DNA of 15,979 nt from a virus (lineage: Duplodnaviria > Heunggongvirae > Uroviricota > Caudoviricetes). This document shows, one piece after another, positions 3,929-7,457 of this stretch. The notes under the pieces are model-generated. The model searched no databases. It was not told the origin of the DNA and saw only the letters and a list, made by a program, of their open reading frames with translations. Location of the stretch: the IMG/VR virus record IMGVR_UViG_2548876865_000009, positions 1 through 15,979 of that record; one strand, 5' to 3'. Numbering within the stretch: position 1 is the stretch's first letter; each line of letters opens with the position of its first letter. The translations under genes and the position numbers were made by a program.

Positions 3929-3934
3929 CGTGCC

Positions 3935-4675
3935 ATGAAAAACATTACGTCAGGTGGTGTTCTGGCAAGAGTCAGCAGATTTGTGCCGCAGGATGCAATC
4001 CCTCCGTACCGTACGGTGGAGGAGTGGCGGGAATGGCAGCTTGCTGAAGGGCGTAAGCGCAGCGAGGAGGTTAATCGCCTGAATCATCAGACTCGGGTTG
4101 AAAAAATCATTAACCGCTCTGGTATCCAGCCGCTTCACCGGAAGTGTACGTTCGGTAACTACCGGGTGCAGAACGATGGGCAGCGCCATGCCCTGAGTCA
4201 GGCGAAATCCATTGCGGCAGAACTGGAAGGCGGCTGTACGAATTTTGTTTTCAGTGGCCGGCCTGGCACAGGAAAAAACCACCTGGCTGCGGCGATAGGC
4301 AATCGGCTGATGGAGAAGGGGGGCAGCGTAATTATCATCACTGTGTCTGATGTCATGAGTGTGTTGCACGACAGTTACGACAACGGCAAATCGGGTGAAA
4401 AATTTTTACAGGAGCTTTGCGGGGTGGATTTGCTGGTCCTGGATGAAATCGGCATGCAGCGGGATACGCGCAACGAGCAGGTCACGCTTAATCAGATTGT
4501 TGACCGCAGAACGGCATCGTTACTCAGTGTGGGGATGCTGACAAATCTTAACCATGCAGCGATGAATACACTTCTCGGCGAGCGGGTGATGGACCGCATG
4601 TCCATGAACGGTGGTCGCTGGGTGACGTTTAACTGGGAGAGCTGGCGTCCGAACGTCAGCCAGCACAGGAACTGA
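3935..4675 (+). CDS. DnaC/IstB-like AAA+ helicase loader (replication protein), 246 aa
   Basis: Walker [16 protein letters not shown] and Walker B LLVLDEIG; directly downstream of the initiator; GGGGG Shine-Dalgarno upstream of ATG. Confidence 0.85.
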
Positions 4676-4704
4676 GAAGTAATTTTTATCCGGAGGAAAT
4701 TTTA

Positions 4705-5735: not shown

Positions 5736-5959
5736 AAATCCTGTATCAGGATTACGGCCCGGTGGGGCAGGTGCTTATCAGCAGTACTGTAATGGAGTTC
5801 CGGAAGCATAACCGTGTGGTGGATTCTGTGCTGTTAACCTGTCCGGGGATATCGGCGAGTCGTGCAGGTGTGTTTATTATGAAGACGAAATTATATGGCA
5901 GTAAGGCGTGGATAAAGAAGGCGTATCGTGTAGCGTTGCAGGAGGTTAACAGTGAGTGA
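5732..5959 (+). CDS. Hypothetical protein, 75 aa
   Basis: GTG start overlapping the upstream stop; AGGAGGG Shine-Dalgarno at 5718-5724. Confidence 0.5.
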   Translation: MKILYQDYGPVGQVLISSTVMEFRKHNRVVDSVLLTCPGISASRAGVFIMKTKLYGSKAWIKKAYRVALQEVNSE

Positions 5960-6263
5960 AATTAAAGAAATGCCGGTAGTTCGTGACGAATATGGCTACT
6001 GGACACATCCTGAATATGAAAAATTCTGTGATGGTCGGGAGAATATTTCAACGGAAGAATTTAACGCGTGGATGGAGGCAAATAATCTTCAGTGGACTAT
6101 CTGCACTATGGATGAAGATGATTTTAACCTGGACGCAGATGGCCCTGATATTTCAGCATGGGAACCGGAACGACCAGAGGGCGATGGCTGGTTTATTGGT
6201 TCCATTCATGATACGGAAGATGGCCCGGTTTGTGTCTGGTTGCGAAATAAGGCTGAAGCATAA
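5952..6263 (+). CDS. Hypothetical acidic protein, 103 aa
   Basis: GTG start with GGAGG Shine-Dalgarno at 5941-5945; overlaps the upstream gene by 8 nt. Confidence 0.55.
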   Translation: MSEIKEMPVVRDEYGYWTHPEYEKFCDGRENISTEEFNAWMEANNLQWTICTMDEDDFNLDADGPDISAWEPERPEGDGWFIGSIHDTEDGPVCVWLRNKAEA

Positions 6264-6609
6264 AGGAGATAAACCAACTAACAACTAAATACTGAAGATT
6301 TAAATCAGAAACGATTTTTATTAAATCCTTAACCGGAGGGATTCCTGCACCCTCAGAATATCAGGAGGCCGCCCGAAAGGGCGGTAAGAAATGAAACATT
6401 ATTTAGAAAAAATTACCCACGAAAGAGCAGAACAACAGAGTTTCTGTTTTTCATTCTGTTTATAGTGTTGATGATACCGATATCCCCGCTATTACTGGTC
6501 TGGATAATTGGAAGGACATTTGAACCAGTTATTGAGCTATATACCGATGTGACATGGGAATCATTCAGCGCACTGCACAATAAAATTAATCCGTATAAGG
6601 AAAACTGAT

Positions 6610-7167
6610 ATGAGCACTATTACCAGAGAACGCGCGGAGATTAAATCATACATCACAGGCTTCCTGAGCGACTCGGCGCACGATAACAAGTCTTCAGACA
6701 GCCTGCTGGCTAATGTGTTTCGTATCGCGCTGGCATCACTGGAAGCAGAGCCGATAGCAATGGTAGTGCCTGATGAAATGGATTTGCTTACCTGCCATCT
6801 CGACGGTGTAACTAAAACATATGCTGATGGCTGGAACGCCTGCCGCGTCGCCATGCTTCAGGCCGGAAACTTTCGGGAAAATAAGAATTCGTCAACCAAC
6901 AATTTTCGGGAAATCTCGGAAACGTCAACCAGATCTCCGATAACTCCGGATGGCTGGATAAGCTGTACTGAGCGAATGCCTGAAAAGAGCCAGAACGTGC
7001 TTATTTCGATGAATATCGATAGCGAGGCAGGGCCATTAATATATTCCGCACGCTATCTCGGAGGCACGTTCCGGCGCGGAGGTATAGCAGTTAGTCCGGG
7101 TAATGATCTTAGGCAAGCAACCCACTGGATGCCGCTACCAGAACCGCCGCAGGAGGTGAATCAATGA
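6610..7167 (+). CDS. Hypothetical phage protein, DUF551-like C-terminal region, 185 aa
   Basis: AAGGAAAA Shine-Dalgarno 7 nt upstream; C-terminal GWISCTERMPEKSQNVLIS resembles the DUF551 motif as I recall it. Confidence 0.65.
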   Translation: MSTITRERAEIKSYITGFLSDSAHDNKSSDSLLANVFRIALASLEAEPIAMVVPDEMDLLTCHLDGVTKTYADGWNACRVAMLQAGNFRENKNSSTNNFREISETSTRSPITPDGWISCTERMPEKSQNVLISMNIDSEAGPLIYSARYLGGTFRRGGIAVSPGNDLRQATHWMPLPEPPQEVNQ

Positions 7168-7247: not shown

Positions 7248-7457
7248 AAACGGTTTGCGGGAAAAGGATAGTTAAGTAGAATTGCAGCGGGTGCTTGAGG
7301 CTATCTGCCTCGGGCATGAACACCAACGGCAGATAGAGAAAAGCCCCAGTTAACATTACGCGTCCTGCAAGACGCTTAACATTAATCTGAGGCTCAATCC
7401 ATGCTGAACACATGTAGGTTAGCCTCTTACGTGCCGAAAGGCAAGGAGAAGCAGGCT

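Follow-up and report, generated by a model that had tools for sequence, protein, structure and literature searches.

Genomic setting of the locus

The window, by which we mean the whole 15,979-nt stretch of DNA that was analysed (IMG/VR record IMGVR_UViG_2548876865_000009), comes from a lambdoid (Rac/Qin-like) E. coli prophage and spans its early-right region. The window carries a repressor-like HTH gene on the minus strand (1687-2085), genes for YdaS, YdaT, a replication initiator, a DnaC-like loader and DUF1627, and three small ORFs. The gene immediately upstream of the locus (5952-6263, plus strand) encodes a 103-aa protein of phrog_1372, a family with no assigned function, and its stop codon begins a 127-nt intergenic gap. 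On the other side lies a DUF551 gene (6610-7167, plus strand), the usual downstream partner of DUF4014 genes at a 1-nt gap, followed by a Hok/Gef toxin ORF (7401-7613) and a BOF (YgiW-like) gene (7733-8077). The gene list places a DUF968 gene between the latter and a Q antiterminator gene (9883-10578). Three tRNA genes (12238-12487) lie 3’ of the Q gene, with anticodons CAT (Met according to ARAGORN, Ile according to RefSeq), Arg-TCG and Arg-TCT; this layout of a Q gene and then tRNAs matches the region upstream of stx in Stx phages, for example ArgO145.

Between positions 6200 and 6700 the window and E. coli OkiPb01678 (locus L001 in our set) are 100% identical. The coordinate offset between the two is not maintained across the upstream ORFs (approximately 3930-4680), so the window represents a related, non-identical genome. 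In the related RefSeq genome, this prophage additionally contains a RelE/RelB pair, and its YdaS and RusA genes are frameshifted.

A frameshifted DUF4014 gene

An earlier note on this DNA had described two unannotated micro-ORFs ahead of the DUF551 gene, and both translate as it described: a 24-codon ORF at 6391-6465 (MKHYLEKITHERAEQQSFCFSFCL and a stop codon) and a 45-codon ORF at 6471-6608 (or from a GTG at 6465), whose TGA lies 1 nt before the DUF551 ATG at 6610. Profile and allele comparisons indicate that these are two parts of a single 72-aa DUF4014 gene (Pfam PF13198) and not separate genes. The body of the gene occupies the other frame at 6399-6608 (plus strand) and covers Pfam profile positions 4-72. 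Micro-ORF 2 consists of the last 45 codons of that frame and by itself matches PF13198 positions 28-72 (48.6 bits, E 1.1e-12); read continuously from 6360 (6360-6605), the frame matches positions 4-72 with 87.6 bits, against a cut-off of 23.2 (E 7.4e-25). The 24 residues of micro-ORF 1 gave no Pfam match. Its first six codons (MKHYLE) are true codons of the gene and its seventh, K, is coincident, leaving 17 out-of-frame codons before a TAG.

At the same locus in E. coli O157 PV15-279, an intact 72-aa protein (MKHYLEKNYPRKSRTTEFLFFILFIVLMIPISPLLLVWIIGRTFEPVIELYTDVTWESFSALHNKINPYKEN) is read from the same ATG (6391-6393 in the window, plus strand), which is the annotated start in intact alleles. 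The intact-allele translation begins MKHYLEKNYPRKSR and ends KEN, and the protein has a basic N-terminus and one hydrophobic helix. It matches PHROG 1832 (E 1.1e-44), a family labelled, vaguely, ‘released from the phage upon host infection’. In some records the protein is named ‘sugar acetyltransferase inhibitor’, a name for which our literature search found no source.

Aligning the window with an intact allele located the loss of frame to a single A missing after TTTAG, within codons 6-8: the run at 6407-6412 (plus strand) is A6 where intact alleles have A7. With one A lost, ribosomes starting at the ATG at 6391 would therefore stop after 24 codons. The DUF4014 frame of the window contains no ATG, GTG or TTG before 6465, and the remainder of the gene, micro-ORF 2 included, lacks a start codon of its own in good context. 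The copy belongs to DUF4014 by its profile match, without an intact ORF of approximately 72 aa from a canonical start, and its genomic setting is typical of the family (a lambdoid early-region accessory block, directly before a DUF551 gene). Most probably, the window allele is null or very leaky.

An 81/82-nt probe spanning the A run was matched to the 504 E. coli records carrying this allele: 488 have A7 and 7 have A6. Strain 2014C-3011 is an example with A6, and O157 Sakai and PV15-279 are examples with A7. A second measure of the same run is the spacing between the ATG and a conserved CC. Intact alleles all measure 29 nt; the spacing is 28 nt in the window type, which comprises the window, L001 and two IMG/VR contigs, and also in the unrelated allele of locus L125; the A7 run has thus contracted at least twice. 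In L125 (minus strand, approximately 5830-5860) an independent A7 to A6 contraction affects a different DUF4014 allele, which reads MVTLFRKNIRERVEQQNSCFSFCLS and then a stop. This pattern marks the A run out as a recurrent frameshift hot spot. We had considered the window allele as an evolutionary intermediate and dropped the idea, as A7 is common to both allele lineages, which makes A6 a secondary contraction. A homopolymer assembly error keeps some small probability as the cause of A6, a run seen in seven genomes from three sources and in two IMG/VR contigs.

The earlier note had also remarked that no ORF was annotated here, which does not hold generally. On the 100%-identical sequence, RefSeq places an 82-aa DUF4014 family protein (WP_044809747.1; L001 7161-7409, equivalent to window 6360-6608) that starts with an ATC at 6360, a start adopted because the frame has no proper start codon. 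We rejected this start, which overlaps the Shine-Dalgarno (SD) sequence described below and has no SD of its own, and regard the 82-aa model as an artefact. Three further ‘DUF4014’ entries of 80-82 aa (P0001, P0004 and P0006) may carry the same artefact. For annotation, the region is to be read as one frameshifted DUF4014 gene and not as two small proteins; this part of the locus is ordinary, a known gene that has been frameshifted.

Structure of the upstream leader

The intergenic gap falls into two parts. Its AT-rich first part (6264-6319, plus strand) lies outside the conserved element in alignments and is common only to close relatives with the same upstream gene; a promoter scan found no promoter-like site in this spacer. 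The second part is a leader element of approximately 65 nt (6320-6385, plus strand; covariance-model match 6314-6385, 97.9 bits) that proved to be portable, as described below.

Near its 5’ end the leader contains UCCUUA (6326-6331, plus strand), which matches the 3’ end of the anti-SD of 16S rRNA in full. In the minimum-energy fold its UCCU is predicted to pair weakly with the AGGA of the SD, and three of these four pairs are invariant across copies. The earlier note had proposed two hairpins, and both are present. Hairpin 1 (6336-6354, plus strand) is a 5-bp stem of GAGGG with CCCUC around a 9-nt loop (arms GGAGGG at 6335-6340 and CCCTC at 6350-6354). At -7.2 kcal/mol it is weak (z-score -0.9; 37 of 200 shuffles did as well). 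In full copies of the leader four of its five pairs are invariant, and the hairpin is missing from the minimal copies described below. Hairpin 2 (6369-6384, plus strand; CCGCCC-GAAA-GGGCGG) is strong: the 37-nt stretch that contains it (6360-6396) folds at -16.4 kcal/mol (z-score -4.4), which none of 200 shuffles equalled, and the stem reaches 7 bp if a G6368-U6385 pair is included.

The SD (AGGAGG, 6363-6368, plus strand), which is complementary to 16S rRNA, lies 22 nt 5’ of the ATG at 6391, as the earlier note had it, and hairpin 2 sits wholly between the two. This distance exceeds 13 nt, as in the split sites of phage T4, and with hairpin 2 folded only 6 nt (UAAGAA) are left between the stem and the ATG. 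The SD variants found among copies (AGGAGA, GGGAGG and CGGAGG) all retain GGAG.

The earlier suggestion that the region might be a separate regulatory RNA found no support. Scans of the window and of CFT073 detected neither a promoter nor a terminator in or adjoining the leader, and no terminator-like site was found on either strand between 5900 and 6900, the tail of hairpin 2 being UAAGAAAUG, with no U tract. A scan of 6000-6900 against Rfam 15 with E-values up to 1 returned nothing relevant, the best match being an unrelated eukaryotic element (20.7 bits against a threshold of 45, E 0.26).

Distribution of the leader and the genes that follow it

Searching 5426 complete E. coli genomes with a 101-nt probe (6300-6400) placed the leader at 4320 positions in 2644 of them, with up to six copies per genome under different annotated genes. 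Fifty-eight distinct variants of the leader have a mean column identity of 93%. In an example alignment, the block at approximately 6320-6385 is constant, the 5’ flank is variable, and there is a sharp 3’ junction right after hairpin 2. The leader is limited to Escherichia/Shigella, Citrobacter (one braakii) and some Salmonella; a scan of one genome per species recovered it only in E. coli/Shigella and Citrobacter braakii. A covariance-model search of 98 of the approximately 150 loci (about 0.9 Mb) returned near-identical or partial copies and no diverged ones, and the DUF4014 loci of Salmonella and E. albertii added two more wobble variants as well as leaderless copies. The Rac and Qin prophages of K-12 hold no copy, so K-12 transcriptome data could not be used.

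Surveying the genes downstream of 128 leader copies, taken from IMG/VR and other loci, revealed at least five unrelated families, always with an ATG 6-11 nt past hairpin 2. The distance is 6 nt for DUF4014, 7 nt for DUF7167, 9 nt both for a mosaic family starting MTELTKE (some members of which end in DUF551) and for an unassigned family starting MQDIKEN, and 11 nt for the Q-antiterminator family PF06530. RefSeq start codons agree with these leader-proximal ATGs. Four of the five families have no SD nearer the start; the exception is the Q family, with an additional GGAG between hairpin 2 and the ATG. The Q-family protein found behind the leader (in L043, L036, L044 and L076) is 171-174 aa long and combines PF06530 with sigma-70 region 4.

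Copies of the same gene with and without the leader differ in their start-proximal sequence. In each of the 15 DUF4014 genes without the leader, an AAGGAG or GGGAG lies 5-7 nt from the start codon, whereas leader-bearing DUF4014 (n=28) and DUF7167 (n=57) genes have no comparable motif outside the hairpin, the sole purine-rich motif near their starts being an AAGG inside it. Some copies of the element are minimal and consist only of TCAGGAGG and hairpin 2, with no hairpin 1. Such a unit directly follows a stop codon ahead of DUF7167 in phage ArgO145 (L141 7096-7128, minus strand) and ahead of DUF4014 in L023-type contigs, and another occurs in a plasmid-like Salmonella contig (L145) with plasmid-type TraM and KfrB genes. 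The persistence of minimal copies defines the constant unit as SD, hairpin and ATG, and makes hairpin 1 and the UCCUUAACC segment accessory.

Across the 58 variants, 98.1% of cells are paired, with one double change (G-C to A-U); the copies all share more than 87% identity, and their covariation does not exceed that of shuffled controls. Most hairpin 2 substitutions replace C by U within the 5’ arm (four positions), with G-U pairs retained, and on the 3’ arm just two types of G to A substitution occur. Because C to U on the 5’ arm keeps pairing only in RNA of the plus strand, the bias favours an RNA read from that strand; with few independent events, this is suggestive only.

Several loci depart from the usual arrangement 3’ of the hairpin. 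In four of them (L063, L031, L055 and L095) the leader is followed by remnants of 7-20 codons beginning M(T/A)ELTKE and then by an unrelated gene with its own SD; the remnants look like scars of module exchange just 3’ of the leader. In L133 and L136 (Shigella flexneri / E. coli ECMA0423), unrelated sequence beginning GGAGCAGTCACACATCTG cuts the element exactly after the hairpin, which may mark the end of an insertion or rearrangement. At the convergent junctions of L009 (1249-1276), L058 and the Citrobacter locus L137, the same hairpin runs into a T-rich tail; the L009 hairpin scores as terminator-like, and its adjoining SD has decayed to AGGAAA.

A candidate split ribosome-binding site

Taken together, we consider it likely that the locus consists of a frameshifted DUF4014 gene behind a leader that acts as a split ribosome-binding site. 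Hairpin 2 would fold in the mRNA and remove 16 nt from the path between the SD and the AUG, reducing their separation from 22 to approximately 6 nt, which would let the distant SD direct initiation in the manner of T4 genes 38 and 25. The leader would thereby serve as a portable translation-initiation cassette heading those accessory-gene blocks that follow an intergenic gap, and would move among lambdoid prophages by recombination. That the hairpin could bring the SD close to the ATG had been raised in the earlier note. Comparison speaks for it, through the conserved SD-hairpin unit and its 6-11 nt spacing in five families, the proximal SDs of leaderless copies and the T4 precedent, and it is from these comparisons that we infer a hairpin-bridged site as the most likely function of the leader.

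Some observations temper the split-site reading. In the minimum-energy fold the AGGA of the SD is paired with the upstream UCCU, which would oppose initiation, and the A-rich, unstructured sequence around the AUG could permit initiation independently of the SD. The high conservation of the leader could reflect recent spread rather than selection, and the hairpin may have another primary role, given its terminator-like form at convergent junctions.

The split sites of T4 genes 38 and 25 were reportedly described by Nivinskas and co-workers in 1999 and by Malys and Nivinskas in 2009. In these genes, hairpin folding has been shown experimentally to reduce the SD-AUG distance from 22 to 5 nt (gene 38) and from 27 to 11 nt (gene 25) (PMC3014915). 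The leader resembles them in the layout of its sequence: an SD too far from the AUG, a stable hairpin wholly between the two, and a workable folded spacing (6 nt, compared with 5 and 11 nt). It differs in several respects. The leader is known here from its sequence, bears no sequence relation to the T4 sites, and occurs in temperate lambdoid prophages rather than a T-even phage; and whereas the T4 sites are gene-specific, the leader is one cassette shared by many unrelated genes, with up to six copies per genome.

Other systems share fewer of these features. The E. coli rpmE and thrS mRNAs have non-contiguous initiation regions (PMC7297116), and like the leader they contain a stable stem-loop that interrupts the translation initiation region. 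In the leader, however, the stem-loop divides the SD from the AUG and has no known binding protein. Members of PF13198 / PHROG 1832 such as L0067 of phage 933W are of the same size and occupy the same place directly upstream of DUF551; in contrast to the window copy, whose frame is lost after codon 7, 933W and the other leaderless DUF4014 copies use an ordinary proximal SD. Intrinsic terminators and the boxB of lambda nut sites have a comparably short GC stem with, as here, a GNRA-type loop, but the window hairpin has no U tract, the element is not promoter-proximal, and minimal copies have no boxA-like upstream part. A nut-like (boxA/boxB) reading had been raised by UCCUUAAC together with the GNRA loop. 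It was dropped because the element is distant from the early promoters, can sit in one or the other early operon, stands ahead of many genes and has minimal copies without the boxA-like part. No N-like gene was recognised in the window.

Our literature search found no paper containing the hairpin sequence or the term ‘DUF4014’. The leader is widespread in E. coli prophages and is a plausible further case of an established mechanism; we found no description of this leader. If it works as proposed, it would be the first split ribosome-binding site outside T-even phages to emerge from that search, and approximately half of the complete E. coli genomes would contain a modular initiation cassette reused by prophage accessory genes. 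Such a cassette would bear on the prediction of start codons and expression in prophages and would offer a natural part for tuning translation. As the mechanism is already known, the stakes are modest.

Alternative explanations for the leader and the split gene

The leader might instead be a mere recombination junction for the exchange of lambdoid modules, its SD-hairpin geometry being incidental and without a role in translation. The flanks do change abruptly on both sides of the leader, truncated gene remnants follow it in several loci, diverged copies were not found, and the covariation is not significant, all of which such a junction would explain. We nonetheless think it unlikely as a full account, since it leaves the constant 6-11 nt placement of the ATG in five families to coincidence, together with the lack of any other SD in four of these when leaderless copies of the same gene have one. 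Against it also stand the survival of the minimal SD and hairpin unit apart from the rest of the element, and a substitution pattern that favours pairing in the RNA of one strand. Exchange at the leader and a role in translation are not mutually exclusive.

Hairpin 2 could also act mainly on the transcript, as a stabiliser, as a processing site, or as a weak terminator or attenuator that closes the replication module. Its position after the replication genes fits this idea; in lambda, the terminator tR2 follows the replication genes. The T-rich tails at the three convergent junctions, with a terminator-like score and a decayed SD in L009, point the same way. Wherever a gene follows, however, the hairpin has no U tract (UAAGAAAUG in the window) and receives no terminator call, and this reading accounts neither for the closeness of the ATG nor for the SD beside the hairpin. 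We regard a primarily transcript-level role as improbable, although it would be compatible with one in translation.

A further variant assigns the hairpin to regulation: the SD-adjacent GAAA hairpin, which is unchanged at as many as six prophage loci in one genome and precedes unrelated accessory genes and even a Q antiterminator, would be a shared translational operator, through which a phage or host RNA-binding protein switches accessory genes together, with hairpin 1 and the UCCUUA anti-SD mimic providing an alternative fold. We give this variant little credence.

The remaining alternatives concern the gene. It is very hard to credit that the A6 allele still yields full-length protein through -1 slippage or polymerase stuttering, and so serves as an expression dial or phase switch. 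A -1 slip of tRNA-Lys at GAA-AAA-AUU would restore precisely the A7-allele product, and two allele lineages show independent contractions of the run. The ATG frame (codons UUA GAA AAA AUU), however, contains no X XXY YYZ heptamer, a stimulatory signal is not evident on inspection, the A6 allele is rare (7 of 504 records), and a run of six A residues is short for transcriptional slippage.

The earlier proposal of two separately translated tiny proteins, the second perhaps restarted after the first stops, is largely refuted by the comparisons and now seems most improbable: the TAG of ORF1 overlaps the GTG at 6465 with the ATG at 6471 within 5 nt, an arrangement that would allow termination-reinitiation, but it occurs in only 7 of the 504 records, with one 72-aa ORF elsewhere, the tail of ORF1 is out of frame and has no family match, ORF2 (profile residues 28-72) would begin inside the hydrophobic helix of DUF4014, and no SD precedes 6465-6471.

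The 5’ end of the gene varies in frame in another respect. Comparison of L003:1692-1720 with L004:1572-1600 and L005:1575-1603 (window 6391-6419) shows that, set against phage alleles and the Pfam consensus (MxTLFRK(K/E)YPRK), the common allele of DUF4014 in E. coli (MKHYLEKNYPRK) has itself been frameshifted twice, the two shifts compensating each other. A base is missing behind its ATG and an extra one follows its A run, so that residues 2-7 come from a different frame of this DNA.
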